Shown: positions 1,732-61,673, numbered from the stretch's first letter. The stretch is 64,000 nt of DNA from an uncultured Gammaproteobacteria bacterium (GCA_964538435.1 CAZIDX010000001.1:393-64392), one strand, 5' to 3'. Translations and numbers: made by a program. The notes: a model not told the origin generated them from the sequence alone.

Positions 1732-1805
1732 GACGAGCTTCCTGATCGCACACGCGTGATCAACTCCTGCAGCTAGTTCGCTGGCTGCAGGCTTTCCACT
1801 GGAGG

Positions 1806-2684: not shown

Positions 2685-2686
2685 CC

Positions 2687-3601: not shown

Positions 3602-3668
3602 GACAAACAAAACGAGCTCAGCTCGAACGAGAGCGAGGCCCACAAAGCCTCGCTCTTTCTACATCAGA

Positions 3669-3684
3669 CTCGGGGAAATCCGAG
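3669..3684 (+). promoter_or_regulatory. Conserved leader hairpin, copy C (CTCGG-GGAAAT-CCGAG) about 35 nt upstream of the AAA+ gene start
   Basis: Same GGGGAAATCC core with covarying flanks; followed by CGATGACCAATCTACAA box shared with copy B. Confidence 0.45.
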
Positions 3685-3719
3685 AACGATGACCAATCTA
3701 CAAACGGAGGATAGACGCG

Positions 3720-5600
3720 ATGAAATTCCGTCATCTCGACTACGAGTTCCGACGTCAGACTGCCAGGATGTTCATGTCCGGGCAGTCGCAGAGCATCATT
3801 CTCCACGGCAACGTGGGGGACTACTTCTACCTGAAGCCCGAGCATTCAGGCAGGGATCCGAAGACCAACGAGATCCTGCACAAGGAAGGCAAGTACGTCA
3901 CCATGCTCGACTACTTGCGTCCGAGGTGGGGGAACGTGGCCAATACCATCCTGCTCGTCTACGAGCTGGGTGGCCCGATCCAGTTCATGTCCAAGGAAGA
4001 CCGCACGCTGTTGCGCGAAGCTTGGCTCAAGTTCCGGACAGAGGAGCTCTGGCAGGAGAACATGAAGGCCGACATCCTGGTCGATCCCAAGGAGGCCGAA
4101 GAACAGGTCGCGTCGCAGTTCAACGAGCTGCTCACTCGAGCCCACAAGGACCCGTCTCAGGCCCTGCGCATTCTGCGCAAGTTCTGCCAGATCTCCCGCT
4201 GGGAACACAAGGACAACCCGATCCGTAATCATCGGATCGTGATCCTGCTCGAGGATGCGGACCTGATCATTCCCGAAGGGGAGATCACGCGCATGAGCGA
4301 CAAGGATCGTCGGCGCATGGTGATCTGTCGGGAGTGGTTCACGGACCCTGGGTTCATGAACGGCGAAGACGCAGTGGTCATGATCGCTGAGTCTGCCAGC
4401 CAGATCAACGGTCGTGTCAGCAAGCTCCCGCAGGTTCTTCGTGTGGCTGTGAACGCTCCTCTGGAGCACGAGCGTGCACACTACATCCGATGGTTCAACG
4501 CCATGCAACCCAAGGATCGCAAGATCAAGCTCTGGGGCACACAGGAAGTACTGGCTGCCTACTCAGCAGGCCTGAACTTGCACGCCCTGCGCCAGATGCT
4601 CGTGGGTGCCACCTACGAGGATCGCAAGCTCGAGAAGAGCGACGTCACTGACCATGTCGAGGCGTACATCATCGCGCAGCTGGGTGAGGGTACGGTCGAG
4701 TTCCATCGGCCACACCACCACCTCAAGGATCTGGTCGGAAACGCAGACGTGATCCGCTTCCTGCGCGAGACCGTGATCCCGCGCATGCTCTCAACCGGCA
4801 AGAGCGCTCTCAGCGGCATTGCTGTCTCAGGCCCTATCGGTGCAGGCAAGACCTTCATCTTCGAGGCTGTGGCTGCCGAACTGGGTATGCCGGTCCTGAT
4901 CCTCAAGAACCTCCGCAGCAAGTGGTTCGGAGGTACGGATGTGATCATGGAGCGGCTCGAGCGCGTGCTCTACAGTCTGTCCAAGGTCGCGATCTTCGTG
5001 GACGAAGCCGACACCGTGTTCGGCGGAGTCGGACAGGACGTACACGCCACCGAGCGCAGGCTCACCGGCAAGATCCAGTCCTGGATGTCAGACCCGCGCC
5101 TCAAGGGCAAGGTGATCTGGATCCTGATGACGGCCCGCGTGCAGAACCTATCCGCAGACATCCGTCGCCCCGGGCGCGTTGGCAACCTGATCATCCCGAT
5201 CCTGGACCCGACCGGCGACGATCGCATTGCGTTCATCAACTGGGCGCTCAAGGGCTACTGCAAGCTTCCTAAGCAGGGGAGCGCAGAATGGATCCGAATC
5301 GAAGAAGCAACCAAGGGTTTCTCGGCCGCGCAGTTCGCTGCACTTCGAGAAGAGCTGGATGCTCAGGTCGAGCTCACAGGCAATGATCTCACCTTCAAGG
5401 ACGCTCTCGAGATCCTAGAAGAACAGCTCTCAGCTGACATCCAGACCGAGCGCCGAGTCCAGGAGCTCTACGCTCTGGTCAACTGCACACGCAAAAGCCT
5501 GCTGCCCGGCGGCAAGGACCTGTCGCGTGCGGATGTCGAGGAGCTGAAGAAGGGGTGGATGAAGGAGATCCACATGCACAAGCGCGCACTCGCCGCTTGA
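3720..5600 (+). CDS. Classic-clade AAA+ ATPase with a degenerate N-terminal AAA-like domain (two-domain architecture)
   Basis: RBS GGAGGA; C-terminal domain has Walker A GPIGAGKT, Walker B IFVDEAD, and an SRH-like RPGRVGN motif. N-terminal half has pseudo Walker A GQSQSIILHGNVGD and Walker B-like VILLEDAD. Confidence 0.75.
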   Translation: MKFRHLDYEFRRQTARMFMSGQSQSIILHGNVGDYFYLKPEHSGRDPKTNEILHKEGKYVTMLDYLRPRWGNVANTILLVYELGGPIQFMSKEDRTLLREAWLKFRTEELWQENMKADILVDPKEAEEQVASQFNELLTRAHKDPSQALRILRKFCQISRWEHKDNPIRNHRIVILLEDADLIIPEGEITRMSDKDRRRMVICREWFTDPGFMNGEDAVVMIAESASQINGRVSKLPQVLRVAVNAPLEHERAHYIRWFNAMQPKDRKIKLWGTQEVLAAYSAGLNLHALRQMLVGATYEDRKLEKSDVTDHVEAYIIAQLGEGTVEFHRPHHHLKDLVGNADVIRFLRETVIPRMLSTGKSALSGIAVSGPIGAGKTFIFEAVAAELGMPVLILKNLRSKWFGGTDVIMERLERVLYSLSKVAIFVDEADTVFGGVGQDVHATERRLTGKIQSWMSDPRLKGKVIWILMTARVQNLSADIRRPGRVGNLIIPILDPTGDDRIAFINWALKGYCKLPKQGSAEWIRIEEATKGFSAAQFAALREELDAQVELTGNDLTFKDALEILEEQLSADIQTERRVQELYALVNCTRKSLLPGGKDLSRADVEELKKGWMKEIHMHKRALAA

Positions 5601-5647
5601 ACACCAGGGTTCGTCAACGACTGACGGACCCATTTCAACACGCAGCG

Positions 5648-5663
5648 CAGGGGAAATCCTGCA
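5648..5663 (+). promoter_or_regulatory. Conserved leader hairpin, copy B (GCAGG-GGAAAT-CCTGC) about 35 nt upstream of the next gene
   Basis: Third copy of the GGGGAAATCC core with compensatory flank changes; followed by GTGTGACCAACTACCA box. Confidence 0.45.
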
Positions 5664-5696
5664 CGTGTGACCAACTACCAGGACCGGAGTGAAACA

Positions 5697-6809
5697 ATGC
5701 CCACCATGCACGCCCGCCTGTGCCGCACGATTCTTCGAAACGCCAGGAAGGCGGGGAAGTTCTACGAGTACGACGATGAGAGCTCGCTCGACGAGCCCAT
5801 CATGTTCTTCTTCCAAGAGTCCGTGGAAGGTCTGGTGCTCTTCATTGTGTACCGCACACTTCCATGCGTCTTCAACGGATGCACCTTCTGCCGTCTGCCT
5901 GGTACATCCACGCTGCGCGAGGTGAACTTCCGTCACGTAATGAATCAGACCAGGTACGTGATGACCCACCCGGACGTGGTGCCGCGCCTGGACGAGATCC
6001 AGAAGCTGATCATCTCCAACCAAGGCTCCATCCTGGACCAACGCACGTTCGACCAGCTCGCGCTCATGGACCTGATCGCTCAGGGTGAGTACAACTTCCC
6101 GAACATGGCTAGCATGTGCCTGGAGACCCGCATCTGCTACGTCGAGGATGAAGAGATTGTGCTACTCGGCCATGCCATGGCTGGCGGTGACACCGTGACT
6201 GTGCTCGAGTTCGGGATCGGGGTCGAGGCCTACAACGACTCAATCCGCAACTCCAGGCTCGGCAAGGGGATGCATCTGCGCGAGAAGCCCAACAGCCTCG
6301 AGCGACTGGCCGAACGGCTCTCGCTCTTGTGTGAGGACATGCTACGCTTCCGCATCAAGTGCTACTTCCTGCAGAAGCCCCACGAGAGCATGACCGACGA
6401 AGAGGCGGTCCAGGACGTCAAGGACATGATCGACTTCATGTCTGGTCTGGTCGCCAAGCATGCGATCCGGATGAACCTCCATCTCAACCCCACCTTCGCG
6501 GCCAAGGAAACCAAGCTCGAGACCGAATTCAAGGCCGGCAGGTTCACACCGCCACGCCTGAGTGATGTCGCGCGCGCGGTTCTCTACGCCGAGGACAAGG
6601 GGGTGAGTGTGTTTGTCGGGCTCGACGACGAGGGGCTTGCCTGCGAAGGAGGTTCCTTCCTGCAGCCTGGCAACGAGCGCATGGTTGCGGCCCTGGATCA
6701 GTTCAACCGTACGCAAGACTTCGATGAGCTGCGCGCAAGGCTGGATGCCTACCTTGGCGATCCGCACTACAATCACGAGACCGACCTGATCGAGGTTCCA
6801 ACGGCCTGA
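5697..6809 (+). CDS. Hypothetical 370-aa protein with a CX4CX2C cysteine cluster (CVFNGCTFC)
   Basis: RBS GGAG before ATG 5697 (ORF track starts at GTG 5667). GC-rich codon usage; sits immediately downstream of the AAA+ gene and shares its leader motif. No family recognised. Confidence 0.55.
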   Translation: MPTMHARLCRTILRNARKAGKFYEYDDESSLDEPIMFFFQESVEGLVLFIVYRTLPCVFNGCTFCRLPGTSTLREVNFRHVMNQTRYVMTHPDVVPRLDEIQKLIISNQGSILDQRTFDQLALMDLIAQGEYNFPNMASMCLETRICYVEDEEIVLLGHAMAGGDTVTVLEFGIGVEAYNDSIRNSRLGKGMHLREKPNSLERLAERLSLLCEDMLRFRIKCYFLQKPHESMTDEEAVQDVKDMIDFMSGLVAKHAIRMNLHLNPTFAAKETKLETEFKAGRFTPPRLSDVARAVLYAEDKGVSVFVGLDDEGLACEGGSFLQPGNERMVAALDQFNRTQDFDELRARLDAYLGDPHYNHETDLIEVPTA

Positions 6810-6876: not shown

Positions 6877-6922
6877 GGTGGATACCATTTAAGTGCCGAT
6901 CGGACCTTATATGGTATCCACC
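6877..6922. repeat. REP-like palindromic repeat, copy 1 (GGTGGATACCATTTAAG-TGCCGATCGGAC-CTTATATGGTATCCACC)
   Basis: 46-bp inverted repeat with a CCGATCGG core; near-identical copies at 31145-31188 and 33693-33735, with outer arms covarying (GGTGG/CCACC vs GGGG/CCCC). Confidence 0.65.
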
Positions 6923-6928
6923 GAGAAT

Positions 6929-7441
6929 CTATTTAATTGTATACAAATAGAGATCAAGTTGCCCCGCGGCTTTGCTTATCTCTTCAGCCTCCCATTCAGG
7001 GATCGGCCAGACATAGCTGATAACCCTAGTTCCAGGTTTGAGCTCTGAGCGAAGCTTTGACTCAATCTTTTCATATGTCTCAGGCATCAGAAACATGTAC
7101 ACCGCATCATATTCATTCAAGTTCTTACCAAACACATTCCCAAATCGATATCGAGCTCGAGAACGCGTTGCTGATGCTTGCAGGGCTGCAACAAGATATT
7201 GCAGTAGAGAAAGCTCAACGCCATGCACTGCGACTCCGGGATTCTTCTGAGCCAAATGTCGACATACACGCCCATTCCCACACCCAAGCTCAACGAACTT
7301 CTCACCATCCTTAAGCTTGAGTAATTTATGTATCCGATCAAGATCTTGCTTCCTGGTAGGCACCCAAGGCGCCCCAGAAGCCGCTGCATACGCAAGCGAG
7401 GCCAGGAGAACCAAGCCAATCCCAGCAAAAACATATAACAT
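6929..7441 (-). CDS. Class I SAM-dependent methyltransferase, small, with an N-terminal TM segment
   Basis: Motif I VELGCGNGRV; about 170 aa. Confidence 0.65.
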   Translation of the reverse strand: MLYVFAGIGLVLLASLAYAAASGAPWVPTRKQDLDRIHKLLKLKDGEKFVELGCGNGRVCRHLAQKNPGVAVHGVELSLLQYLVAALQASATRSRARYRFGNVFGKNLNEYDAVYMFLMPETYEKIESKLRSELKPGTRVISYVWPIPEWEAEEISKAAGQLDLYLYTIK

Positions 7442-7703: not shown

Positions 7704-8480
7704 CTAGGCCTGTGCCGGCTCCTGGTTGTTCACCACGAGCTGCAGGCCGCTGCCGCGCAGCAGATCACTCATGCTGGCGCTGCCGCCGCTGTCCTGGTGA
7801 ACGACATCCTCACCATCGGCCAGGTCGGCATTGGTCAGGATCTCGCGCACGCGCATGTCGAGGTTGATGCCCTTGCCGCTGACCGGGTTCCAGTCCAGGC
7901 TGCGGGTCGCGAAGGTGCGGGACTCGCCGCCGAACATGAGCGGAGCCGGCCGCGAGTACATCATGCCAGCGGGATCCTTGAGCACGATGCGCTGCTTGGG
8001 CTTGGGATCACCTTCCTCGAGCGGGAAGACATCCAGGAAGAACATGTAGTTCTTCCAGACCTTGAAGTGGGGATCCTGGCGCGTGTCCGCGTCCTTGATG
8101 TGCACGGTGCGCACACCGACCTTGACCCGGCCAGCGACGATCAGGGCGTCATCGCCCTTGGGGCCGCGCAGGTGCACGCTGATGCCGCTGCAGCGGTCGC
8201 CCAGGCGCACGTGATGGTACTCGCCGATGGGGGAGTCGGTCACGGGCGTGTGCTCCGCACCCTTGGGGATCTCGATGATGCAGGGGCCCAGGTCCTCGGC
8301 GTAGAACAGTTCCTGGATCGTGGGGTCGTTGCCCTTGTGTCGGGGCGGCTTCTCGATGGTGGCGATGTGACCCACGCCGTCGGTCTCGACGTTCATCGCT
8401 CGCAGCTCGGCGAGGAAGTCCTCCCAGTGCGCAAGAACGTTCAGTCCTCCGATCGTTCGGACGGTCATGTCGGACATCAT
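7704..8480 (-). CDS. Hypothetical protein, GC-rich gene
   Basis: 258-aa ORF with ordinary amino-acid composition; the overlapping + ORF 7317-8726 looks like an antisense shadow. A TTGACA-N17-TATTTT promoter lies on the minus strand near 8560-8600. Confidence 0.55.
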   Translation of the reverse strand: MMSDMTVRTIGGLNVLAHWEDFLAELRAMNVETDGVGHIATIEKPPRHKGNDPTIQELFYAEDLGPCIIEIPKGAEHTPVTDSPIGEYHHVRLGDRCSGISVHLRGPKGDDALIVAGRVKVGVRTVHIKDADTRQDPHFKVWKNYMFFLDVFPLEEGDPKPKQRIVLKDPAGMMYSRPAPLMFGGESRTFATRSLDWNPVSGKGINLDMRVREILTNADLADGEDVVHQDSGGSASMSDLLRGSGLQLVVNNQEPAQA

Positions 8481-12230: not shown

Positions 12231-12240
12231 AACCGCTCAC

Positions 12241-12290
12241 CACGTCATCCTGAGCGCCTGCCTGCCGGTAGGCAGGAAGCGAAGGATCCC
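12241..12290. repeat. Solo copy of the GIY-YIG element terminal repeat (CACGTCATCCTGA-hairpin-GAAGGATCCC) in the murF leader
   Basis: Matches the left ends of the elements at 41448 and 45948, including a covarying internal hairpin (CCTGCC..GGCAGG vs CCCGCC..GGCGG). Confidence 0.55.
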
Positions 12291-14684: not shown

Positions 14685-14750
14685 CCAACGTCTGACTTCC
14701 AACGTCTGACTTCCAAAGTCTGACTTCCAACGTCTGACTTCCAACGTCAG
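14685..14750. repeat. Tandem repeat, 14-bp unit CCAACGTCTGACTT x about 4.7, immediately after a stop codon
   Basis: Units at 14685, 14699, 14713 (one variant base) and 14727, with a partial fifth. Nested GC-rich hairpins and a T-run follow to about 14815. Confidence 0.8.
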
Positions 14751-14985
14751 GCGTCCCCACGAGCCCCGCTCGTGAGACGAAACACTCCGTTTCGCTCGCG
14801 TGCGGGGTGTTTTGTTCAAGCTCAACATCTCAAGCTCAACATCGAACGTCCATAAAAGAAGTCAACCTAGTCATGTTATGTACATCGAACGTCCATTTGT
14901 TGATTTTGAGAAAAAACATTGACAAAACGTTTCAAATAAAGAAAACTTACGTTCTTGCAACCACAGCAAGAGAAAAGGTGGGATT

Positions 14986-15389: not shown

Positions 15390-15543
15390 GGGGGTACACA
15401 CGAGTCGTTCGTCACACGAGACGAACGGCCATGCCCGCCATAGCTCGAACAGCGACGGCGGGTTTCTGTTTGCTCACCAATCTTGACAAAAAAAGGATTT
15501 TCCACTAATATTCTGAGCCAACAGCTTGCAAAAGGAGAACGCG

Positions 15544-16140
15544 ATGGAACTACTGCTGGCTGGAATCGCAGGGGGCATCATGATCGCGGTGCTCCTGATC
15601 TACATCCGCAACATCCTCTACGCTGACATCGGCATGAACCTGTCGACCTGGCTGATCGCCACGGTTGGCCTGCTCGTGCAGAACGTCACGTACTACTCGA
15701 CTGTGGACGGCGAGCTGCATCTGCTCGTAGTGCCAACCATCATCTCTGTCGGCCTTATCGTGAACACGACACTGGGCTGGCGCAAGAGTACGTTCGGCAA
15801 GATCAAGTCGTTCGACATCTTCGCCATGGCAGTGACAGCATTCTGCCTGGTCGCCTGGGTGTGGCTCGGTGGGGTCGTGGTCAATGTGATCCTGCAGGTC
15901 GCACTGCTGATGTCCTTCGTCCCAACGATTCGTGACCTGCGCGCCAAGAAGTTCGAGGACGACCCCTTCCCATGGGGGCTCGCAGCTGTCAGCTTCATCT
16001 TCCAGGTCATGGCTGTCTCGATCTCGGTCGAGGTGCTCGCAGAAGACTGGCCCAGGCTCATCAACCCAATCCTAGTCGGCTTCCCCGGCAATGCGCTCGT
16101 CTGCTGGGCCGCGTTCACTGGAAAGAGGAAGCAGGCCTAG
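15544..16140 (+). CDS. Integral membrane protein, about 6 TM, unknown function
   Basis: RBS AAAGGAGAA before ATG 15544; hydrophobic throughout. Confidence 0.55.
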   Translation: MELLLAGIAGGIMIAVLLIYIRNILYADIGMNLSTWLIATVGLLVQNVTYYSTVDGELHLLVVPTIISVGLIVNTTLGWRKSTFGKIKSFDIFAMAVTAFCLVAWVWLGGVVVNVILQVALLMSFVPTIRDLRAKKFEDDPFPWGLAAVSFIFQVMAVSISVEVLAEDWPRLINPILVGFPGNALVCWAAFTGKRKQA

Positions 16141-21254: not shown

Positions 21255-22142
21255 CTACGCTGCTCCGTGATAGCTGTCCAAGAAGTCTTGCATGGCCTGG
21301 AAGTACCGCGCAGACACCTGGTAGTCCTCCTTGAACCGCGCATGCTCCCGGAAAGGTGCCATGCAGGTTCTGTAGATGTAGCATTGACGGCAAGCGCTGT
21401 CATCTTGCTCGCTGCTGCCCATCGCCTTGCAGATCGGACAGATGTCGTAGCGGTAGCTGACTCGACCACTGCGCTCGAAGTTGCCAAGCTTGACCCTCAG
21501 GCCCTCCCGCACGACCCTGAGCTGTGCAGGGCTCAGCTTGACAAGCTCAGCGCATGTCAGGTTGTCGAGACAAACATCATCGTCCACGACCAGCATCTTG
21601 AAGACTTTGAGGTCGTCGATGTGGTTAGGGTACAGGGCGAGGTAGACATCGCACGCAGTGCGCTCCTCGTTCGTGATCTCGCGCCGATTGTACGCATGCG
21701 CCTGAAAACCCATCTTGCGCAGGAACTTCCCAAACGCAAACGGCTCAGCATCCCTGTCAGCATCCAGGTAGATCATGCTCTTCAGGTACATGAGGTGGAT
21801 GTCGTCCGGCTTCTCTCCGCTCTTGACCAGATCGTGGTGATGGTTCGCGGCGATGTCTCGCAGCTCTGCCATGAGCCGACGAGCAATACCGCGGCCACGG
21901 TACAGCGGGATCACAGTGAAGTTGCGGAACGTCAGGTGGTACATGCTCAGCGTGTACTGCACCCAACCAACAACCTGGTCGCCCTTGTAGCACACGAGCG
22001 TGCACTCGTCCTTACCAAGAAGCGGGCTAGCCGCGAGCATGGTTTCAAAGTACGGCCCAAACACGTTTTGGAAATGCGGTCGCTTGTGCACACACAGCTC
22101 CAAAGGAAGCGCCTCAGCCCCCTCCAACCGTTCGATTCTCAT
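21255..22142 (-). CDS. GNAT-family N-acetyltransferase fused to a Cys-rich C-terminal domain
   Basis: Acetyl-CoA-binding motif VGWVQY...IPLYRGRGIARRLM; C-terminus contains CPIC...C..C...C cysteines. Confidence 0.6.
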   Translation of the reverse strand: MRIERLEGAEALPLELCVHKRPHFQNVFGPYFETMLAASPLLGKDECTLVCYKGDQVVGWVQYTLSMYHLTFRNFTVIPLYRGRGIARRLMAELRDIAANHHHDLVKSGEKPDDIHLMYLKSMIYLDADRDAEPFAFGKFLRKMGFQAHAYNRREITNEERTACDVYLALYPNHIDDLKVFKMLVVDDDVCLDNLTCAELVKLSPAQLRVVREGLRVKLGNFERSGRVSYRYDICPICKAMGSSEQDDSACRQCYIYRTCMAPFREHARFKEDYQVSARYFQAMQDFLDSYHGAA

Positions 22143-23344: not shown

Positions 23345-23373
23345 TTGACAAAATGGCGAAAATCGAGTATTCT
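23345..23373 (+). promoter_or_regulatory. Sigma70-type promoter TTGACA-N17-TATTCT preceding a leader of about 235 nt
   Basis: Read directly from the sequence; a terminator hairpin for the upstream gene lies at about 23297-23323. Confidence 0.5.
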
Positions 23374-23607
23374 CCAATCTTCTTTACCCAATACCAAGGC
23401 AACTATCGCAGCCAAAAATTGCATAGAAACACTCCATGTTCCCTCATGAACAACAACAGCTCAGAGGTTTTTGCAGGGAGTTTTTGTTTTGTGGTCGCTC
23501 GTGCTCAATGGAGGCTTTGCACGGGTTGTCACCGAACAGGTATTACGCCTGAAACGAACAACCTCCCATGCGCTTTTTGCGCTTCCTGTTCATCACAAGG
23601 AGACTTC

Positions 23608-26430
<2,823 letters not shown>

Positions 26431-29354: not shown

Positions 29355-29843
29355 TAGCGCCTCCAGTCTTGATTCAGGTATTGACCTTAAGTCTCTTGCA
29401 TAAAAAAGTCAAAAGGAAAACTCAGCCGAGTGGCTGAGTCCGTGACGTTACGCTCCAAGGGTAAGACCCCCGGCAGCGAAATCTGAGGCAATCACTTCAA
29501 TCAGGTTGAGTACTGATAGAAGTGACGTCTCAAGCTGGCCCGCAAGGAGCGGGAAGAAGAGTTGAAGGACCAGCAATGTCATCACGAGCATAAAGAGGCT
29601 TCGCATATGGATCGTTGGTTAGATCCAGGGGCCGCAGAGCTGACTAAGCCCTGAGTCGGATGACGTTTGCATGGTCACCTCATCCCTTGGGGTAATCCGC
29701 CGAAACTCAGCACATCGCTCCAAGAGACAAGAGACATTTGTGGGACATACGATAATAGCAAGAAAACCGTCTTTTGTCAACCCAAAAGATGTCCATGAAT
29801 AACAAAAATGCTCAATCGAAAAACCCCACCGGAGTGAGGTCTG

Positions 29844-30037
29844 CTAGCCAACGCCGTCTTGCGTCAGGCCAGTGTCGTAGGAGAGGTCTTCGAGCTCGCT
29901 GGCAGACTCCTGCGCTTGATGCCAGTGTTTGAAATGAGTATGCATAGAGCGAGCGAAGTACCAGGGGAGTAGCGCGACCACTGCCGCTGCCACCAGGAAA
30001 TCCCAGTTCTTGCGAACCCAGGCGAGTTTAGTGTTCA
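29844..30037 (-). CDS. Small membrane protein (64 aa) overlapping the 3' end of the pilin gene
   Basis: Internal ATG at 30037 gives MNTKLAWVRKNWDFLVAAAVVALLPWYF...; a terminator hairpin lies just downstream near 29813-29843. Confidence 0.35.
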
Positions 30038-30426
30038 TGCGCAAGCACCCTGATTGTCGCCGAACAATACTTCTCGCCATTGAGTCTGTGGCAACACACC
30101 AGGAACGGCTGCTCCTTCTCACGCACATCGAATGCGCGCACGGTGTAGCCTGCCTGCTCACAGCGCTTGCATCCAAGCTGCTTTGCCTCCTCAGTGGTCC
30201 AGGTGTGAGCAACCCAAGCGTCGAAGTAGCCGACTGCCTCCACCGCTTCGATGGCATCCTGCTCCGTGATCTTTCTCGTGTTCACAACTGTCTGCTCACC
30301 ATCCTCAAGCCCCATGGCACGCTCGCGCATGGCAATGAAGCTCGGGATCGCAATAGCAGCAATGATGCCGATCATGGCGATGACGACCATCAGCTCGATC
30401 AGGGTGAATGCGCGCTCGCTACTCAT
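30028..30426 (-). CDS. Type IV pilin-like / pseudopilin protein (prepilin-type N-terminal domain)
   Basis: MSSERA|FTLIELMVVIAMIGIIAAIAIP class-III signal; C-terminal cysteine pairs including FLVCC. Confidence 0.7.
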   Translation of the reverse strand: MSSERAFTLIELMVVIAMIGIIAAIAIPSFIAMRERAMGLEDGEQTVVNTRKITEQDAIEAVEAVGYFDAWVAHTWTTEEAKQLGCKRCEQAGYTVRAFDVREKEQPFLVCCHRLNGEKYCSATIRVLAHEH

Positions 30427-30581: not shown

Positions 30582-30698
30582 TGAAGGCTCTCCTTTCTCC
30601 AGACAACGACATTACGCAGAAGATGCAGTTTTGTCAAGAATCAGAAAACCCCACCAGCGGCGGGGTCGTTGTCGAATATCTCGGCTTTCTCTACTCGC

Positions 30699-31106
30699 TC
30701 ATCTCTTGAAAAGGATGATGCAAGCCTTGTGTGTGCCAGTGCCTCGGCAGCACACTAGGAAGTTGTGCTCCTCCTCGTGAGAGTCCGAGGCTGTGACTTC
30801 GTACGCACGCAGGTCACGACACGCACAATCACTGTTCCTGAGGTCATGACCCCAGTCCTTGGTTATGATCGGGGAGAGATACCCCGCGTTCGTCATGGTC
30901 ACGAGTGCATCACCAGCCGTGGGATAGCGATCTTCCGTGCTCAGTCCATGATTGACATTGTCGTTCTTGGGTCTCTCTTGCATCGCAATGAAGTTCGGGA
31001 TCACGATCGCTGCCAGCAGGCCCACGATTGCACACACGACCATCAACTCGATCAGCGTCAAGCCGCTACGGCTCTTGTTCATGATTCCCTCCAGGGTCAG
31101 AAGCAA
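30699..31106 (-). CDS. Type IV pilin-like protein (prepilin peptidase site KSRSG|LTLIELMVV)
   Basis: Canonical G|LTLIELMVV prepilin N-terminus; C-terminal Cys pairs and FLVCC shared with the paralog. Confidence 0.7.
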   Translation of the reverse strand: MLLTLEGIMNKSRSGLTLIELMVVCAIVGLLAAIVIPNFIAMQERPKNDNVNHGLSTEDRYPTAGDALVTMTNAGYLSPIITKDWGHDLRNSDCACRDLRAYEVTASDSHEEEHNFLVCCRGTGTHKACIILFKR

Positions 31107-31112
31107 GAGACA

Positions 31113-31141
31113 ATAATAGTCAAAAAACCATCATTTGTCAA
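31113..31141 (-). promoter_or_regulatory. Consensus sigma70 promoter TTGACA-N17-TATTAT driving the pilin cluster
   Basis: Minus-strand reading: ggTTGACAaatgatggttttttgacTATTATtgtc. Confidence 0.65.
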
Positions 31142-31218
31142 CCAGGGGATACCATATAAGTGCCGATCGGACCTTATATGGTATCCCCAAAGAGTATTCA
31201 GCCCAATTAGAAAACCCG
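31116..31218. repeat. 103-bp direct repeat, copy 1 (promoter + 44-bp palindrome + CAATTAGAAAACCC)
   Basis: Near-identical to 33663-33765; contains the palindrome 31145-31188 (GGGGATACCATATAAG-TGCCGATCGGAC-CTTATATGGTATCCCC). Confidence 0.8.
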
Positions 31219-31300
31219 TCTACACTCAACTGAGTATTGACGGGTCGTGACCGTTAATGCACTTCAGACACCGGACCAGCTGGTCCGCAGCTCAAGTACT

Positions 31301-31585
31301 CTAACGCTCTTGTCGTTCGTCCAGGAGCTGTTGCTGCTCCTTCATGCGGTCGTTGAGCTCCTCGAGCTCTTCGAGCACAGCCGGTCCGTTGGCGAACCAG
31401 CGCACGAGCTGCAGGCGCATCTCCGTGCTGCAGTGGCGCAGCAGGTACTCGGCAACAGCCATGGCGATGCCGCGCTTGATCAGCTCGCGGAAGATCAGCA
31501 GGACCGCGATGATGCCGATCAGGCTGATGACCTCGCTGAGGATGCTGATGATCTGAGCGGTTCCGATGAGTCCTTCTTCCATCAC
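31301..31585 (-). CDS. Small membrane protein (94 aa) downstream of the SPFH gene
   Basis: Hydrophobic core IISILSEVISLIGIIAVLLIF; a rho-independent terminator follows on the minus strand at 31206-31247. Confidence 0.45.
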   Translation of the reverse strand: MMEEGLIGTAQIISILSEVISLIGIIAVLLIFRELIKRGIAMAVAEYLLRHCSTEMRLQLVRWFANGPAVLEELEELNDRMKEQQQLLDERQER

Positions 31586-32805
31586 CGACCTCCTTCTTCG
31601 ATGCTCATGTCCAGACCCAGGTCACGGGCGGTCTGCACCGTGAGGAGCTGGATCATGTCCGTGGCCGCGGAGCCAGACACGGTGGGGTCACCACCCATCA
31701 TGACTTCCGGCACCCAGCGCTGCTTGCCGATCTCGGCAGCGTACAGACCGTTGACCTGGACCCACGCTGCGAGCTTCTGCTCGAGCGCGCCGTCGGCCTT
31801 CATGGTCAGACGCTTGCGCTCGGCATCGCCTTCACCGCGCAAGATCTGCTCGGCCTTGTAGAACTCGGCTGCTTCCATCTCGAGCTGCGCGACTTCCTTC
31901 TTCTGCTCGGCCTCGGTGACAGCCTTGGCCTTGAGGACCTCCTGCTGCCACTTGGCACGGGCGGCCTCGGCCTCACCTTGCTTGGCTACGGTCTTGGCCT
32001 GCTGGTCGGCCTTGAGCGCATCCGCGATCGCGGACTGGACTTCCATGGTCGCGTCCTGCTGACGCTGGATCTGCTCCTCGACCTTGGGGTCGTAGTCGAT
32101 GCTGTTGACCGTGAAGTTGAAGGCGCGGATCTGGAACTCGGTCAAGGGAGAGTCTTCCTGGCGCATGTAGCCGCCACTCTCGTTCTCCACGAGTTCCACG
32201 AGGTTGATCACTCGTTCTTCTCCGGTGAGCGAATCCGTCTCCTTCACGCTTCGCGTGCGGGTGCGGTACACACCGTTGCTGACCTGATCACCGACGATCT
32301 GGATCAGCTCGGTGCGTCGGTCCGCGTAGCTCTCCTTGGAGCTCATGAGCGGGCCAGACATGAAGACCGCCTTGTTCACCACCTGTCCGAGCAGGTCTCG
32401 CTCGATCGCGTGCTGCGAACCGTACTTGGTGTGCAGCTTGCGCAGAGCTTCCTCGTTGAGCGGAAGCTCGAAGCGGAGCGAACCTGAGATAGTGGCAGTA
32501 CCACCATCGTTGAAGCGAACAGGGATCGACTGATCCGTGCCGTCGCCAGTCTCAGGGTCCTTGGTGAACCAGTACTGCGAGGACTTCAGGTAGGTCTCGG
32601 TGCCACCCCAACGGGTGAAGTAGAGACCAGGCTCGGTCCAGAAGTGCAGCTCGCCATCGAACGGGTCCTGTTCGATCACGATCTCGTCTGCACCGACGCG
32701 TTCCCACGCCGTGAAGATCGAGATGGTGCCTCCCAGGATCGCCAGTGCGGTGAGGATTCCCACCACAGCCTTGACGACGGAGCCAATCGGGTTTCTGCGT
32801 GCCAT
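31582..32805 (-). CDS. SPFH/band-7 (flotillin/YqiK-like) membrane protein
   Basis: N-terminal TM helix, SPFH core, long Ala/Glu/Lys-rich coiled-coil (flotillin-like) tail; GC-rich codon usage. Confidence 0.75.
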   Translation of the reverse strand: MARRNPIGSVVKAVVGILTALAILGGTISIFTAWERVGADEIVIEQDPFDGELHFWTEPGLYFTRWGGTETYLKSSQYWFTKDPETGDGTDQSIPVRFNDGGTATISGSLRFELPLNEEALRKLHTKYGSQHAIERDLLGQVVNKAVFMSGPLMSSKESYADRRTELIQIVGDQVSNGVYRTRTRSVKETDSLTGEERVINLVELVENESGGYMRQEDSPLTEFQIRAFNFTVNSIDYDPKVEEQIQRQQDATMEVQSAIADALKADQQAKTVAKQGEAEAARAKWQQEVLKAKAVTEAEQKKEVAQLEMEAAEFYKAEQILRGEGDAERKRLTMKADGALEQKLAAWVQVNGLYAAEIGKQRWVPEVMMGGDPTVSGSAATDMIQLLTVQTARDLGLDMSIEEGGR

Positions 32806-32826
32806 CCTTTCTCCCTATGGAAAGGG

Positions 32827-33171
32827 TTAGTGGTCTGTTGACCGGGGTTGCTGCTTGCGGGAACGACTCCCACGAGCAGAAGTTCCAGGAACCCTGCTGC
32901 GCGCACGGTGCGCACGAGCCTGTTCCTGATGGATGTCATCGAGGAGTTCCTCGATCTCGGCTTCCAAGCGCGCGACCTCAGCTTCAGTATGAGCATCAGC
33001 CAGGTCCAGCCTCATCTGCTCGAGACGTTCCTGCGGGGTCAGGGGCTTGGCAGCCCTACGTCGAAGGATCGGAAAGATCCGTTCGTTCCGAAACACGGGG
33101 AGCGTGATCTGTGTCACGACCCCCACCACGAGTAGAACAAATGCCGCGAAAAGCAGGAATTTGATCAGCAT
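32827..33171 (-). CDS. Membrane-anchored coiled-coil protein (109 aa), first gene of the SPFH module
   Basis: RBS GGAGG before ATG 33171; MLIKFLLFAAFVLLVVGVV TM helix followed by a charged helical tail. Confidence 0.5.
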   Translation of the reverse strand: MLIKFLLFAAFVLLVVGVVTQITLPVFRNERIFPILRRRAAKPLTPQERLEQMRLDLADAHTEAEVARLEAEIEELLDDIHQEQARAHRARSRVPGTSARGSRSRKQQPRSTDH

Positions 33172-33344
33172 CGTAGCCTCCTGGGCGAGGGGACACAACC
33201 GAAAAACCTGAGGTTCTGAAGGTTTTCGGAAGTGTCGAACTTAGTACTTTAAAAGAAGTTTGTCAAGCCAATTTGACGACCCGCAATCATTGGGGGTAGA
33301 GTTCAATTAGTTAAGAGGGAAGTCATTTCATAGAAAGGTAGGTT

Positions 33345-33574
33345 ATGACTGACCAGAAGGAGTACCTTTCAGTTTCTGAGTTTCAAGCTAGAATAAAAAC
33401 CTACATCGATGAAAGGGGGGGCTAAGCGTAGAACAGGTCGCTGACATTTGCCGAGTTCATGTAGGAACTGCAAACAGGTGGTACAGGGGCGTGACAGCAC
33501 CCATGCCACTATCCAGGGCAATCGCCGTGGACCACGTTGAACATTACCTGGAGAGACGAACTTCTGTCGGCTGA
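33345..33574 (+). pseudogene. XRE-family HTH transcriptional regulator interrupted by a frameshift in a G7 homopolymer (33415-33421)
   Basis: RBS AAAGGTAGG; frame 1 gives MTDQKEYLSVSEFQARIKTYIDERGG-stop; the +1 frame continues LSVEQVADICRVHVGTANRWYRGVTAPMPLSRAIAV... (HTH). An eighth G would restore a protein of about 77 aa. Confidence 0.5.
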
Positions 33575-33662
33575 CAGAAGTTACAAATCGGCTTTGCAAC
33601 AAGTCGGTTTTCTTTTTGAAAAGCCAAATAGAAAACCGGTCGTCAGAAGCAAGTGGTGGGGA

Positions 33663-33765
33663 ATAGTCAAAAAACCATCATTTGTCAACCAAGGGATACC
33701 ATATAAGGGCCGATCGGACCTTATATGGTATCCCCAAAGAGTATTCAGCCCAATTAGAAAACCCG
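33663..33765. repeat. 103-bp direct repeat, copy 2 (promoter-like TTGACA + palindrome 33693-33735 + CAATTAGAAAACCC)
   Basis: Same orientation as copy 1; the two copies bracket the SPFH module and the HTH pseudogene. Confidence 0.8.
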
Positions 33766-33798
33766 CTAATCTGTTGTAAGACTGCGGGTTCGAGGTGA

Positions 33799-33978
33799 CT
33801 ACGGAGCGTGGAGTTCGTAGTCTTCGGAAAGAGAGGTGGTTTGCTCAGGGGCAGGGCGTTCACCAAGCACCACAGTGATTGCGAGATAAGCCTCGGTCAG
33901 AAGCCATGCTGCAAGAGCGATTCCGATTGCGCTGAGCAGGAGCTCGAGCGCACTCATACGTCGAGATCCGTAACTCAT
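33799..33978 (-). CDS. Small membrane protein (59 aa)
   Basis: RBS GGAGGA before ATG 33978; a minus-strand terminator hairpin (CCCGC...GCGGG + TTTTCT) lies at 33758-33790. Confidence 0.4.
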   Translation of the reverse strand: MSYGSRRMSALELLLSAIGIALAAWLLTEAYLAITVVLGERPAPEQTTSLSEDYELHAP

Positions 33979-34025
33979 AGAATCCTCCATGTGGGACCCT
34001 ATTATCGACAACAAAATGAGTGCTG

Positions 34026-35092: not shown

Positions 35093-36760
35093 ATGTTGGA
35101 GGAACTGTTTTTTGAAATAGGAATCGTCCTCATCATCGCGGCAGCAATCTCGATGCTGGTTTATCGTTTCAAACAGCCCATCATCATTGCCTACATTCTT
35201 ACAGGTGTGATTGTTGGTCCAGGACTTCTTGCGCTCACACATAATCATTCAGTTTTTGACGTCATGTCCGAGATCGGAGTGGCGTTTTTGTTGTTTACCG
35301 TAGGTCTTGGTCTGGACTGGCGCAATGCAAAAGATGTCGGAGGTATCGCTGCGGTTACTGGTGTTGGACAAGTATTGTTCTCAGGTGGGATAGGTTGGGT
35401 TGTTGGTATTGCCCTTGGTCTGGATCCAATCACCAGCCTCTACCTTGCTATTGCGTTTGCCTTCTCCAGCACAATTGTGATTGTAAAGCTCCTCATGGAT
35501 AAAGAGGACCTGGATTCACTCTACGGCCGTATCAGTGTTGGTTTCCTCCTGGTTCAAGACTTTATTGCCATGATCATCTTGCTCGGCCTCGGTGCCTTTA
35601 CTGGCGGAGCTTCACTTGAGCAAGTTGTTGTACTCACGCTTCTTAAAGCATTTATACTGATTCCGGTTCTTTGGGTCATCTCTGTAAAAGTGGTTCCGCA
35701 AGTGCTCTCCTACGTTGCAAAATCCCAAGAGCTCCTATTCATCTTCTCAATCGCCTGGTGCTTCCTCATTGCAGGCCTGCTTGTTCTCCTAGGATTCGGA
35801 ATGGAACTCGGTGCGCTCATTGCAGGTATCACGCTCTCAAGTACAGTCTACTACCGCGAAATTAACGCGCGCATCCGTCCGCTCCGCGATTTCTTCCTCA
35901 TCATGTTCTTTATCGTTCTAGGAACACGGCTGGGAATCGATTCCATTACCTCACTGCTCTTCCCAACAATTATTTTCAGTATTGTCATTCTTGTTGCAAA
36001 GCCGTTCATTGTCATGGTGATCATGCGTGCACTTGGATATCACCCGCGCACAGGCTTCCTCTCGGGAACATCCATGGCACAGATCTCCGAGTTCTCCTTT
36101 ATTGTAATCGCAGCTGGAATCAGCATCGGACATCTTGATGAGTCTGTGCTTGCGCTAGCAACAGCCATCGGAATCGTAACCATTGCCGTAAGCTCATTCT
36201 TAATCGAGCACAACGAACTCTTTTACGAGAAAATCAAATGGGCCATGCGTCCGCTTGAGCCAAAGAAAACACTTGATATCGAGCAGCTTCAGAATCACAA
36301 GCCAACAGACGTACTCATGATTGGTTACCATCGCTCAGGAGCCATGCTCCTACCAACCATTCAAGGTCTGCGCCGCTCATATACAATTGTTGACTTTGAC
36401 CCAATGGTGATCCGTTCGCTTGCAGAAGAGGGACTCCCAGCGATTTATGGCGATGCCGGTGATGAGAACTTTTTGGAGGAAGTAAAAGCTGACCGCGCAC
36501 GTCTGATTGTGTCTACAGTGCCAGATGTTGTTATAAGTACCGCACTTCTCACATATCTCAAATCAAGAAATTACAAAGGAGTAGTTGTTGTGTCTGTTCA
36601 TAAGCGCAGTGATGCAGAAACATGTTACAACCTGGGTGCAACATACGTCATTGTTCCAAGCGTGCTCAGCGGAACAAAGTTCTCAGAAATTCTGTCTGAG
36701 AAAAAGACAGCAAAAAGATCCTGGAGCGCACTTCAAAAAACTATCCTCAGCAGCAAGTAA
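35093..36760 (+). CDS. Monovalent cation:proton antiporter (CPA2/Kef-type) with a C-terminal TrkA-N (RCK) domain
   Basis: Kef-like N-terminus and about 12 TM helices; C-terminal Rossmann-type VLMIGYHRSG motif. Confidence 0.8.
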   Translation: MLEELFFEIGIVLIIAAAISMLVYRFKQPIIIAYILTGVIVGPGLLALTHNHSVFDVMSEIGVAFLLFTVGLGLDWRNAKDVGGIAAVTGVGQVLFSGGIGWVVGIALGLDPITSLYLAIAFAFSSTIVIVKLLMDKEDLDSLYGRISVGFLLVQDFIAMIILLGLGAFTGGASLEQVVVLTLLKAFILIPVLWVISVKVVPQVLSYVAKSQELLFIFSIAWCFLIAGLLVLLGFGMELGALIAGITLSSTVYYREINARIRPLRDFFLIMFFIVLGTRLGIDSITSLLFPTIIFSIVILVAKPFIVMVIMRALGYHPRTGFLSGTSMAQISEFSFIVIAAGISIGHLDESVLALATAIGIVTIAVSSFLIEHNELFYEKIKWAMRPLEPKKTLDIEQLQNHKPTDVLMIGYHRSGAMLLPTIQGLRRSYTIVDFDPMVIRSLAEEGLPAIYGDAGDENFLEEVKADRARLIVSTVPDVVISTALLTYLKSRNYKGVVVVSVHKRSDAETCYNLGATYVIVPSVLSGTKFSEILSEKKTAKRSWSALQKTILSSK

Positions 36761-41342: not shown

Positions 41343-41447
41343 ACAAAAAACAAACGCGGTTGGGTGCAAACACACTCAACCGCATTGTGGTTTCTTGAAT
41401 GCTGACTAGTTTGGTCTCTGATTCATCTCGTCAAACTTTCACCACAC

Positions 41448-41840
41448 CACGTCATCCTGACCCCGCCGTAGGCGGTGGGAAGGATCCCCCTCGTAGCAAG
41501 AAAAACGTATGGACCGAGAATATTTTGCATACATGATGACGAATACCCACAACACTGTGCTTTACACAGGAGTCACGAACGATCTAATTCGTAGAGTTGA
41601 AGAACATAAAGAAGGCAAAGTGAAGGGGTTCACAAAAAAGTATAAATGCACAAAGCTTGTGTTCGTTGAAAGCACACCAGATGCAATGTCTGCAATCGAG
41701 CGTGAGAAAGAAATCAAAGGATGGAACAGAAACAAAAAGAATGAATTAGTAAATTCTATTAACCCCAACTGGAGCGACCTGTCGTTCGAAATGTAAGAGC
41801 AGGGGATCCCTCAGTCATCACAAACTCCTTCGGGATGACG
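41448..41840. mobile_element. Mini-element of about 390 bp: GIY-YIG nuclease gene bounded by terminal inverted repeats of about 45 bp
   Basis: Left end CACGTCATCCTGA...GAAGGATCCCC; right end GGGGATCCC...GGGATGACGGTGG, its inverted counterpart; a paralogous element lies at 45948-46337. Confidence 0.6.
41509..41796 (+). CDS. GIY-YIG nuclease-domain protein (95 aa, UPF0213/YhbQ-like)
   Basis: YFAYMMTN...VLYTGVTNDLIRRVEEHKEG...REKEIKGWNRNKKNELV matches the GIY-YIG pattern as I recall it. Confidence 0.75.
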   Translation: MDREYFAYMMTNTHNTVLYTGVTNDLIRRVEEHKEGKVKGFTKKYKCTKLVFVESTPDAMSAIEREKEIKGWNRNKKNELVNSINPNWSDLSFEM

Positions 41841-45947: not shown

Positions 45948-46337
45948 TTTGTCATCCTGACCCCGCCAAAGGCGGTGGGAAGGATCTCCTAATCTTTGAG
46001 CATATGAGCAAAGAATATTTCGTCTACATGATGGCAAACAAAAACAATGCCGTGCTTTATACTGGTGTGACGAACTGTATTACAAGCAGGGTTAGGCAAC
46101 ACAAAAAGGGCACCATTGATGGGTTCACAAAGAAATATAAATGTACAAAACTCGTCTTCGCCGAATCAACAAGTGACATCTTGGCTGCTATCGAGAGGGA
46201 AAAAGAGATAAAAGGTTGGAAACGAGAGAAAAAGAACAAACTAGTTGAAACAATAAATCCTAATTGGATGGATCTGTCATCTGAATTATGAATCAGGAGA
46301 TCCTTCCTCCTCGCAACCTTGTCGTCAGGATGACAAA
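45948..46337. mobile_element. Second GIY-YIG mini-element with terminal inverted repeats (TTTGTCATCCTGAC...GGAAGGATCTCC / GGAGATCCTTCC...GTCAGGATGACAAA)
   Basis: Right end is an exact inverted copy of the outer 12-15 nt of the left end; same architecture as 41448-41840. Confidence 0.65.
46004..46291 (+). CDS. GIY-YIG nuclease-domain protein, paralog of 41509-41796
   Basis: About 65% identical by eye (YFVYMMANKNNAVLYTGVTN...REKEIKGWKREKKNKLV). Confidence 0.75.
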   Translation: MSKEYFVYMMANKNNAVLYTGVTNCITSRVRQHKKGTIDGFTKKYKCTKLVFAESTSDILAAIEREKEIKGWKREKKNKLVETINPNWMDLSSEL

Positions 46338-59446: not shown

Positions 59447-59576
59447 AACGCCAAAATACTAGCATGGATAAAGGTTTTGTTCAATGTTGGGCCTTGACAA
59501 ATCAAGCAAAAATGGTCATTTTAATCTGCTCGAAGTTTCCTCAAACACAACCCAAGACGGGTTGGAAGGCAGCAAG

Positions 59577-60410: not shown

Positions 60411-60472
60411 CCTCACACGGACGGTAAGCGCAAGCTGCCGTCTTTTCTGTTATAGAGACTATGTAACAAAAT

Positions 60473-60486
60473 TTCGTACGTACGAA
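60473..60486. repeat. 14-bp palindrome TTCGTACGTACGAA (site 1)
   Basis: The identical core recurs inside the 30-bp palindrome at 60541-60570. Confidence 0.6.
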
Positions 60487-60540
60487 CTAAAATTACATTC
60501 TACTCTTCACACACCCTCAGCTTTTCGCTGAAACAAGTAT

Positions 60541-60570
60541 GACTTTTTTTCGTACGTACGAAAAAAAGTC
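60541..60570. repeat. 30-bp perfect palindrome GACTTTTTTTCGTACGTACGAAAAAAAGTC adjoining the CAATTAGAAAACCC-terminator unit
   Basis: Read directly; followed on the minus strand by the terminator of the 60618-61637 gene. Confidence 0.65.
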
Positions 60571-60617
60571 GCAATTAGAAAACCCGTCCTTCCGAAGAAA
60601 AACGGGGTCGTTGCAGT

Positions 60618-61637: not shown

Positions 61638-61673
61638 TTTCAGTCATTATCCATTGCTCACTGAGGGAGAAGT

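Follow-up and report, generated by a model that had tools for sequence, protein, structure and literature searches.

We analysed a 64,000-nt stretch of DNA (GCA_964538435.1, CAZIDX010000001.1:393-64392; hereafter the window) in which two near-identical direct repeats, R1 and R2, flank a 2.4-kb block that carries an operon for an SPFH/Band-7 protein and lies between p63, a gene for a small membrane protein, and pilinA, a type IV pilin-like gene. We conclude that R1 and R2 are probably the scar of a recent insertion into the p63–pilinA intergenic region of a chromosome that we assign to Candidatus Uhrbacteria. The orthologous intergenic region of a sister species has a single terminator–promoter region and no SPFH block. 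In the window, each repeat carries a 61-nt palindromic element that is absent from the sister, and R2 has a broken −10 hexamer.

A duplicated terminator–promoter unit flanks the SPFH block

A repeat search aligned 31115-31218 with 33662-33765 as direct repeats of 104 nt with 98% identity and a start-to-start spacing of 2547; the two mismatches between the copies are substitutions at 31149 and 31162. The 103-bp repeats of a preliminary description of this sequence (31116-31218 and 33663-33765) are therefore real but slightly longer than reported, and they extend further. On the promoter side the repeat is interrupted by a divergent patch of 7 nt in copy 1 (AGACAAT, 31108-31114) and 8 nt in copy 2 (TGGTGGGG, 33654-33661; the patch that marks this copy is also represented as TATTCCCCACCA). 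Beyond the patch, 12 further nucleotides, GTCAGAAGCAAG, are common to both copies (31096-31107 and 33642-33653), and the whole duplicated unit therefore measures 123/124 nt. Shuffled sequence gave no match to the palindrome or promoter segment of the repeat.

On the minus strand the unit begins with the final GGG of an intrinsic-terminator stem and continues with the T-tract and tail (GGGTTTTCTAATTG), a 15-nt arm plus palindrome, 2 nt, TTGACA, a 17-nt spacer, a −10 hexamer and ~12 nt of transcript. The terminator unit CAATTAGAAAACCC, previously noted in each copy, is present at 31204-31217 and 33751-33764 as the reverse complement of the T-tract and tail. The 44-bp palindrome noted with it was also recovered, with 44 nt in R1 (2 mismatches) and 42 nt in R2 (1 mismatch). 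The elements of the unit and its immediate neighbours are as follows.

31096-31218, minus strand: R1, repeat copy 1, comprising tail, 61-nt palindromic element, −35, 17-nt spacer, TATTAT and ~12 nt of the predicted pilinA transcript (repeat search and sequence reading)
33642-33765, minus strand: R2, repeat copy 2, the same 123/124-nt unit 3' of p63, in which the 8-nt patch makes the −10 TATTCC (repeat search, promoter scan and sequence reading)
31113-31141, minus strand: predicted pilinA promoter, TTGACA-17-TATTAT (11/12 in the scan; the sister keeps GTTGACA-17-TAATCT in the same place)
33660-33688, minus strand: R2 promoter remnant, TTGACA-17-TATTCC (sequence reading; the scan makes no call)
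31143-31203, unstranded: 61-nt palindromic element in R1, palindrome 31145-31188 plus asymmetric 15-nt arm, between tail and −35 and absent at the sister site
33690-33750, unstranded: 61-nt palindromic element in R2, palindrome 33693-33734 (repeat search and folding)
30699-31082, minus strand: pilinA, type IV pilin-like, left neighbour of the putative insertion, most likely read from R1 (N_methyl, TIGR02532)
33799-33990, minus strand: p63, small membrane protein with its own promoter at 34029-34001, right neighbour of the putative insertion, adjoining pilinA in the sister (open reading frames (ORFs), promoter scan and sister comparison)
33759-33791, minus strand: p63 terminator hairpin, whose last GGG and T-tract lie in R2 (folding)

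An independent assembly, represented by the Logan k=31 contigs L084, L001 and L083 of run SRR8146440, recovered every base of the region, including the G7 frameshift described below. L084 ends at 31191, L001 spans 31189-33738 and L083 starts at 33736. These breaks coincide with a 56-nt stretch that is identical in R1 and R2, which explains their position in a k=31 graph.

The sister species has a single-copy site

A metagenome scan with pilinA identified contig FLOH01000142.1 (202,636 bp; GCA_900089805.1; loci L096/L121), which derives from a congeneric species with ~78% nucleotide identity to the window over 8.3 kb. Amino-acid identity between the two is 94% for the antiporter, 88% for HrcA, 83% for APH, 81% for p247, 69% for p63, 63% for pilinA and 56% for pilinB. 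The contig is colinear with the window from ~45.5 to ~23.4 kb (about 22 kb), through the genes for DnaJ, DnaK, antiporter, p247, p63, pilinA, tm52, pilinB, small52, p194, APH, p440 and the MopE-repeat protein. Only two large differences were apparent: a 547-aa ORF present in the sister, and window positions 31145-33794, which the sister lacks.

The second difference corresponds to the SPFH block and its repeats. In blastn, L096 4935-5908 matches window 34769-33795 and L096 5938-6801 matches window 31144-30315, so that the alignment skips from 33795 to 31144 across a 30-nt gap in the sister contig. The sister order is p247-p63-[96 nt]-pilinA, with one terminator, one promoter, no SPFH block and no palindrome. 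After the p63 stop, its intergenic region reads TCACGACCCTGCCGCAAGGTGGGGTTTTCTTATTG followed by GTTGACA-AACCTCTGTTTTTCGAC-TAATCT-CTTCTCTTGCTTCTGACCCTAAGGAGGGGCC-ATG (in short form, TAG..GGTGGGGTTTTCTTATTG followed by GTTGACA-17-TAATCT-CTTCTCTTGCTTCTGACCCTAAGGAGGGGCCATG). The p63–pilinA region of FLOH01000142.1 thus reads as an empty site with a single terminator–promoter region, the arrangement that the preliminary description had proposed to look for. It supports the earlier proposal of an insertion or duplication that copied the pilin promoter region.

The polarity of the change rests on two observations: R1 and R2 differ at 2 of 104 positions whereas the species differ by ~22%, and both copies carry the palindrome that the sister lacks.

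The other large difference is a second indel in the pilin cluster. A ~547-aa ORF without a Pfam family lies between pilinB and small52 in the sister (L096 7296-8945, equal to L121 12254-13897); its only window counterpart is a 64-aa ORF at 29844-30038.

R1 retains the predicted pilinA promoter and R2 carries a probably decayed copy

The perfect TTGACA-N17-TATTAT described earlier for copy 1 was found by the promoter scan on the minus strand at 31141-31113, with 11/12 matches, and is followed by a ribosome-binding site and pilinA (30699-31082). The −35, the 17-nt spacing, the start of the 5' untranslated region (CTTGCTTCTGACCCT) and the ribosome-binding site are all conserved in the sister, and for this reason we regard R1 as the working promoter that most likely drives pilinA. 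The earlier statement that copy 1 drives the pilin cluster is thus most likely true for this gene. PF07963 and TIGR02532, which describe the prepilin N-terminal cleavage/methylation motif, match both pilinA and pilinB.

The same scan does not call R2, in which the −10 is TATTCC. Judged from sequence, R1 has the hexamers, the 16-18 nt spacing and the −10 A2/T6 of a sigma-70 promoter, whereas R2 does not. R1 and the sister are equal in spacing across the −10 region, whereas R2 has one extra base and a different sequence, and the R2 −10 therefore appears to be the derived state. R2 is oriented on the minus strand into the block, toward the 3' end of the convergent helix-turn-helix (HTH) gene. A hairpin at 33603-33641 comes ~10-50 nt after the promoter remnant and is predicted both to terminate the HTH gene and to block reading from R2. 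R2 is thus probably an orphan, decayed and silent promoter copy. The preliminary description had given each copy an outward-reading promoter; this fails for R2, which reads inward.

The block encodes an SPFH operon and a frameshifted HTH gene

The block between the repeats (31219-33641) consists of a minus-strand three-gene operon, p114-SPFH-p94, and a divergent HTH gene, the only gene of the locus on the plus strand. This confirms the content described previously, namely a membrane coiled-coil protein, an SPFH protein with a long charged tail, a small membrane protein and a frameshifted HTH regulator; both small membrane proteins are coiled-coil-looking. The features of the block are listed here.

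31210-31248, minus strand: predicted SPFH operon terminator, with the 5' half in the block and the last GGG and T-tract in R1 (ACGACCC...GGTTTTC family of this genome)
31301-31582, minus strand: p94, small membrane, coiled-coil-looking protein, whose start overlaps the SPFH stop (TGATG) (ORF reading; no family match)
31582-32805, minus strand: SPFH/Band-7 protein, 407 aa, with an N-terminal hydrophobic segment and a charged Ala/Glu/Lys/Gln-rich tail (PF01145)
32827-33171, minus strand: p114, small membrane protein (transmembrane segment, coiled-coil-looking region), the partner conserved upstream of SPFH (homologue contexts)
33238-33266, minus strand: inferred SPFH operon promoter, TTGACA-17-TAAGTT (read from sequence; below the 4-of-6 rule of the scan for the second hexamer)
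33345-33574, plus strand: HTH-like gene, 76 codons, frameshifted at the G7 run 33415-33421 (ORF reading, Logan contig L001)
33603-33641, unstranded: hairpin at the right end of the block, holding the tail-like motif 33624-33641 (repeat search and folding)

PF01145 (Band_7/SPFH) matches the 407-aa protein over residues 51-263 with 35.4 bits against a cut-off of 23.6. A sequence search of the PDB gave no match to a solved structure. The family has >1,700 homologues, and the few with source names are from Uhrbacteria or Patescibacteria. The nearest homologues (P0002, P0003 and P0004; 76, 75 and 61% identical) keep a p114-like partner although their neighbours differ, and their contexts contain no p94, HTH gene, pilins or flanking repeats. 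p114 itself is 37-45% identical to the gene upstream of SPFH in three other genomes. Neither p114 nor p94 matched a Pfam or NCBIfam family even at E up to 10, and there is no NfeD-type partner. Literature searches on Patescibacteria SPFH proteins and on the run accession returned nothing relevant.

The block's SPFH operon resembles the stomatin-NfeD, HflK/C and flotillin-like YqiK/FloT operons in that its SPFH protein combines an N-terminal anchor, an SPFH domain and a long, charged, coiled-coil-like tail, and is predicted to be co-transcribed with small membrane proteins. It differs from them in that its SPFH family is divergent and without sequence match to a solved structure, and in that the NfeD partner is replaced by p114, a conserved partner that falls in no family.

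One extra G at 33415-33421 restores the frame of the HTH gene. The frameshift is likewise present in Logan contig L001, an independent assembly of the same reads. The repaired protein has sub-threshold Pfam matches only (HTH_23, HTH_17 and HTH_3), a very weak NCBIfam match to the VC1465 Xer-activation factor family (E = 9e-4; 19 bits, cut-off 70), and no homologue among 5.8 billion proteins.

With Pfam, NCBIfam, PADLOC and viral loci we detected no sign of a recombinase, transposase, defence system or phage in the block. Specifically, Pfam and NCBIfam scans of five block and flank proteins returned no recombinase or integrase, PADLOC returned nothing, and the comparison with viral loci returned only a 31% fragment.

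The block is GC-rich, as described previously (GC 0.59-0.66 across 31300-33200). GC content at third codon positions (GC3) is bimodal in the window: ~0.45-0.55 in core genes, 0.81 in SPFH, 0.84 in p94 and ~0.70 in the pilins. We considered GC-richness as evidence of horizontal transfer and rejected it. SPFH orthologues in two Uhrbacteria of 41-42% GC have GC3 of 0.52-0.54 against ~0.29 in their neighbours, ribosomal genes included. Since these orthologues show the same kind of excess over their neighbours as SPFH in the window, we attribute it to the gene family. Raised GC3 is also seen for this class of genes in the sister species. Across the window, housekeeping genes have GC3 of ~0.43-0.55 and a second class has 0.68-0.91; the latter comprises the genes at 436-6809, 7704-8480, 15526-16140 and 21255-22142, the MopE protein, the pilins, SPFH and 59484-62285.

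Contigs of the species that carries the SPFH homologue P0003 (L085-L090) show strain polymorphism ~90-120 nt past the SPFH stop, right after the terminator. Some run ...CTCTTAGATCAG followed by TTGACA into the L27 promoter; many others run from the same point into GGCTCTATGTCAAACAAGG... and end within ~140 nt. This pattern is that expected for a multicopy insertion sequence (IS)-like insertion just upstream of a −35.

The block boundaries coincide with terminator tails

The right end of each repeat falls within a terminator stem, at the GGG plus T-tract tail. We counted 9 occurrences of the tail motif GGTTTTCTNATTG in the window, where 0.3 would be expected. At the other end of the block, right after R2, a tail-like GACCGGTTTTCTATTTGG at 33641-33624 matches the tail of the repeats at 16/18 positions. 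The terminator family ACGACCC..GGTTTTC has 3 members in the window, where 0.02 would be expected, and is represented at the sister p63 as well. Since the terminator of the block is in the style of this lineage, its sequence favours relocation of the SPFH block within the lineage over distant transfer.

Look-alike terminators of the form ACGACCC(C)G...CGGGGTTTTCTNATTG lie at window 30644-30669, 31210-31248 and 60578-60611, and at L096 5905-5938. Their tail often abuts the −35 of the next promoter.

A 61-nt palindromic element probably entered the intergenic region separately

In the sister the terminator tail abuts the −35, whereas in both R1 and R2 the 61-nt palindromic element lies between them. 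Its palindrome is near-perfect over 42-44 nt (GGGGATACCATATAAG..CCGA and TCGG..CTTATATGGTATCCCC; pattern GGATACCAT.TAAG...CTTA.ATGGTATCC). Folded as RNA it is predicted to pair over ~20 bp in a hairpin, and the z-score of the region is −5 to −6. At the other two pilin-cluster promoters the palindrome is missing, and the distance between tail and −35 is 0 nt (30606-30650) or 30 nt (29749-29830). A third copy lies elsewhere in the window:

6877-6922, unstranded: third palindrome copy, 46 nt, between convergent genes, without a promoter, 6 nt past a terminator tail

The tail belongs to the gene ending at 6809, and the copy stands directly after the stop of the methyltransferase gene at 6929-7441. 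Matching changes in the two arms of this copy, GGGG..CCCC to GGTGG..CCACC, leave it symmetrical. Because the third copy has no promoter and the other pilin-cluster promoters have no palindrome, we consider the palindrome an independent unit. The 61-nt element thus appears to be a separate, earlier insertion, which was missed in the preliminary description.

With 3 copies in 64 kb against 0 expected, all of them intergenic and 6-15 nt from a terminator tail, the element appears to behave like a lineage-specific extragenic palindrome of the repetitive extragenic palindromic (REP) or miniature inverted-repeat transposable element (MITE) type. Like REP/BIME sequences and small MITEs (Neisseria Correia elements, ERIC, RUP), it is short, nearly palindromic, intergenic and repeated, stands next to terminators in either orientation, forms a very stable hairpin and is polymorphic in presence or absence at orthologous sites, being absent in the sister. 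It differs from them in that the 64-kb window holds three copies, that any target duplication is at best 2 nt and uncertain (a possible CA/TG duplication at copies 1 and 2, with which copy 3 is inconsistent), that no cognate RAYT/IS was found in the window, and that it has no similarity to Rfam families or to the metagenomes searched. In these searches the palindrome pattern gave 0 matches in a metagenome collection that includes the sister contig, and its half-site gave 0 in viral contigs and was absent from all 119 loci of other organisms. With Rfam, the whole window yielded a tRNA and no other match, and 29.3-34.2 kb gave none at E up to 1; no transposase (RAYT, Y1 or IS) was found among 10 small candidate ORFs scanned in the window.

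Other hairpin repeats are present in the window. A second, unrelated extragenic family, GTCATCCTGA-[GC-rich hairpin]-GAAGGATC, occurs at 12238-12277, 41445-41489 and 45951-45989, in each case just 3' of a gene (PBP2, the DnaK region and the gene ending at 45931), suggesting that REP-like repeats are general in this genome. Two palindromes that share the core TTTCGTACGTACGAA lie between convergent genes at 60461-60498 and 60541-60570; one of them is perfect over 30 nt and adjoins the terminator tail at 60572-60585. With its length of 26.7 kb, the Logan contig beginning at 33736 reaches its end near these palindromes.

Proposed history of the locus

Based on these data, we propose the following history. 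The ancestral state, kept in the sister, would be a p63 terminator abutting the pilinA promoter. The 61-nt palindromic element would then have inserted between the terminator tail and the −35. Subsequently, a 2.4-kb segment comprising the self-sufficient p114-SPFH-p94 operon and the divergent HTH gene would have arrived flanked by R2 and R1, an event that also duplicated the ~123-nt regulatory unit, which runs from the terminator tail until ~12 nt beyond the predicted start of transcription. R1, beside pilinA, would have kept the consensus promoter, so that pilin expression was preserved, while the orphan R2, facing the HTH 3' end, would have had its −10 destroyed by a short patch of substitutions. 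For the join, the conserved terminator-tail motif most likely provided the homology. The structure could have arisen if a template switch or unequal exchange exited the recipient past the start of the 5' untranslated region, copied the block and returned at the terminator tail, or by a single crossover of a circular intermediate carrying the unit, which would give the same result. No dedicated recombinase was apparently involved. The 104-nt repeats may in turn be capable of deleting the block through homologous recombination.

Several points weigh against this reading. The comparison involves one close relative, which is a different species (~78% nucleotide identity), and polarity is judged from how young the repeat is and from the missing palindrome in the sister, not from an outgroup. 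We found no locus that could have donated the SPFH block, and no SPFH orthologue of the sister in the protein database, the best match being 76%. Either relocation or transfer from another Uhrbacterium would account for the block. The k=31 graph fits the inserted form and an empty site plus a 2,547-bp circle equally well. The recombination route is read from the junction sequences only. Finally, the palindrome has its centre at a classic activator position, ~61 nt before the predicted pilinA start, and may have a regulatory role.

Alternative explanations

The two-copy arrangement might instead be old, with R1 and R2 kept alike by gene conversion and the sister having lost the block through an R2 x R1 deletion. 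Direct repeats of 104 nt are good deletion substrates, the SPFH-p114 pair is widespread and apparently core in candidate phyla radiation (CPR) bacteria, and parsimony alone, with two genomes, gives no direction. Such a deletion, however, should leave the 61-nt palindromic element behind, and the sister has none; conversion would also have to spread the palindrome to both copies yet spare the 8-nt patch, and no other Uhrbacteria locus examined has SPFH by pilins or between repeats. We therefore consider an old duplication unlikely. An assembly artefact or population mixture, in which the chromosome has the empty site with the palindrome and the 2,547-bp unit is a circle or belongs to a co-occurring strain, agrees with the ends of the Logan contigs at the shared 56 nt, where the graph allows both solutions. 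Yet two substitutions and the patch tell the copies apart, and independent contigs join each version to the unique sequence beside it; the ambiguous stretch, at 56 nt, is below ordinary read size; the deposited contig is 285 kb long; and the unit carries no replication gene. These features make an artefact or mixture very improbable.

The preliminary description also raised a cassette-like module. As a dedicated mobile cassette, the block would use the palindrome unit as an attachment site for a recombinase encoded elsewhere (integron-like, Xer/IMEX-like or with IS200/IS605-type hairpin recognition). Palindromes do stand at both junctions, the third borders a compositionally distinct block (436-6809, GC3 0.74-0.91), and the repaired HTH protein has its very weak match to the VC1465 Xer-activation family. 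However, the duplicated unit is host sequence, namely the pilinA promoter and the start of the 5' untranslated region, both of which the sister has; neither the block nor the ORFs scanned contain a recombinase or transposase. By inspection the hairpin is near-perfect, without extrahelical bases or attC R'/R'' cores, and the inner spacing of the palindrome does not fit a 28-nt dif site. Moreover, the SPFH pairs of other Uhrbacteria are without flanking repeats, and no viral or metagenomic copy of the palindrome was found. A dedicated cassette is thus very unlikely, and that part of the preliminary description is not upheld. The palindrome might also be a transcription-factor operator of the pilin promoter, its second copy being functional (as a decoy or in control of the neighbour) and not a scar. 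It spans ~−39 to −82 from the predicted start, with its centre in a class I activator position; the paired change of the third copy keeps the symmetry, and an HTH gene adjoins copy 2. But the sister has the same promoter without the palindrome, the third copy stands at a promoterless site where two genes converge, and the HTH gene beside copy 2 is frameshifted, with no homologue found. A 44-nt perfect-type palindrome is also long for an operator, and the other extragenic hairpin family that follows genes in this genome fits a REP-like class. An operator function for both copies therefore seems improbable to us.

The most novel interpretation is that the 61-nt element is a new non-autonomous mobile or recombinogenic element of CPR bacteria that targets terminator–promoter junctions and whose hairpin or flanking tail became the recombination site at which the SPFH operon was captured. 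We consider this quite unlikely; if true, palindrome-associated gene capture would shape the Uhrbacteria hotspot between the Mur ligase and antiporter genes (see below), with the aid of a trans-acting enzyme. On balance, an insertion that duplicated its target, with R1 and R2 as its scar, remains the probable explanation.

Comparison with known systems

The proposed scar is reminiscent of those left by Campbell-type single crossovers or template switches, in which inserted DNA likewise lies between direct copies of a host segment (~123 nt here) and a relative has the single-copy empty site. As in those cases, one copy stays functional for the adjacent gene while the other is orphaned, and the repeats could permit deletion. 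Unlike them, the block lacks an integrase, a tRNA target and any backbone resembling that of a vector or phage. What was duplicated is a terminator–promoter unit, and one boundary lies in a terminator stem of which only a genome-wide tail motif is shared. Elements that duplicate a recombinase attachment site also show direct repeats and a single-copy empty site, as here, but both are equally expected from homologous insertion-duplication, and the recombinase or integrase gene of such elements is absent from the block and flank proteins scanned. Integron cassettes are similar in that a gene block lies between similar hairpin-forming repeats in a variable region. The present block differs in holding four genes with their own TTGACA-type promoters and not a single promoterless ORF, in having repeats that include the host promoter and lack R'' (RYYYAAC) and R' (GTTRRRY) cores or extrahelical bases, and in the absence of an integrase among the ORFs scanned.

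Genomic setting

The window is chromosomal, with genes for DnaK, ClpB, RecQ, PBP2 and tRNA-Glu. Among GTDB representatives the antiporter (35093-36760) reaches at most 72% identity, and the matches come almost entirely from Uhrbacteria, which points to Candidatus Uhrbacteria, within the CPR, as the source of the window.

In eight Uhrbacteria contigs the conserved order g8734-g9212-PBP2-Mur ligase is followed by 0.2-8 kb of variable DNA and then by (p247)-antiporter-PP2C-HrcA-GrpE-DnaK. In the window the Mur ligase gene ends at 13629 and p247 at 34026, giving an interval of ~20 kb. The Mur-ligase/antiporter interval is thus a hypervariable plasticity hotspot across Uhrbacteria, with a filling that was different in each genome compared. 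The hotspot comparison set window 13630-34025 against L008, L012, L016, L018, L019, L023, L025 and L027; the ~20-kb filling of the window holds tRNA-Glu, RecQ, the MopE-repeat protein, APH, the pilins and SPFH. No pilins or SPFH were found near the antiporter in Uhrbacteria at greater distance (50-72% antiporter identity). We rejected them as empty-site references because they are too distant, although they do show the hotspot.

Other repeats lie within this interval. A 14-nt unit, CCAACGTCTGACTT, is present in ~5 tandem copies at 14685-14756, directly after the gene ending at 14683. The 1025-aa protein encoded at 23353-26430 is built from MopE-type metal-binding repeats, ~10 in tandem, that recur every ~200 nt in the gene; at 25644 and 25647, inside this gene, Logan contig L084 and the window disagree, probably through repeat-related variation.

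Implications

The locus is a well-resolved example of known processes, namely target-duplicating insertion, decay of a redundant promoter and a small extragenic palindrome, and requires no new mechanism or new kind of element. The genomes of CPR bacteria are small and poor in repeats, and gene gain and movement in these bacteria are little understood. Here the empty site of the sister and the filled site of the window provide a clean before/after pair, in which insertion of a gene block would have preserved the pilin promoter by duplicating it, after which the redundant copy would have decayed. The 61-nt element, in addition, is a pointer to REP/MITE-like repeats in CPR genomes.

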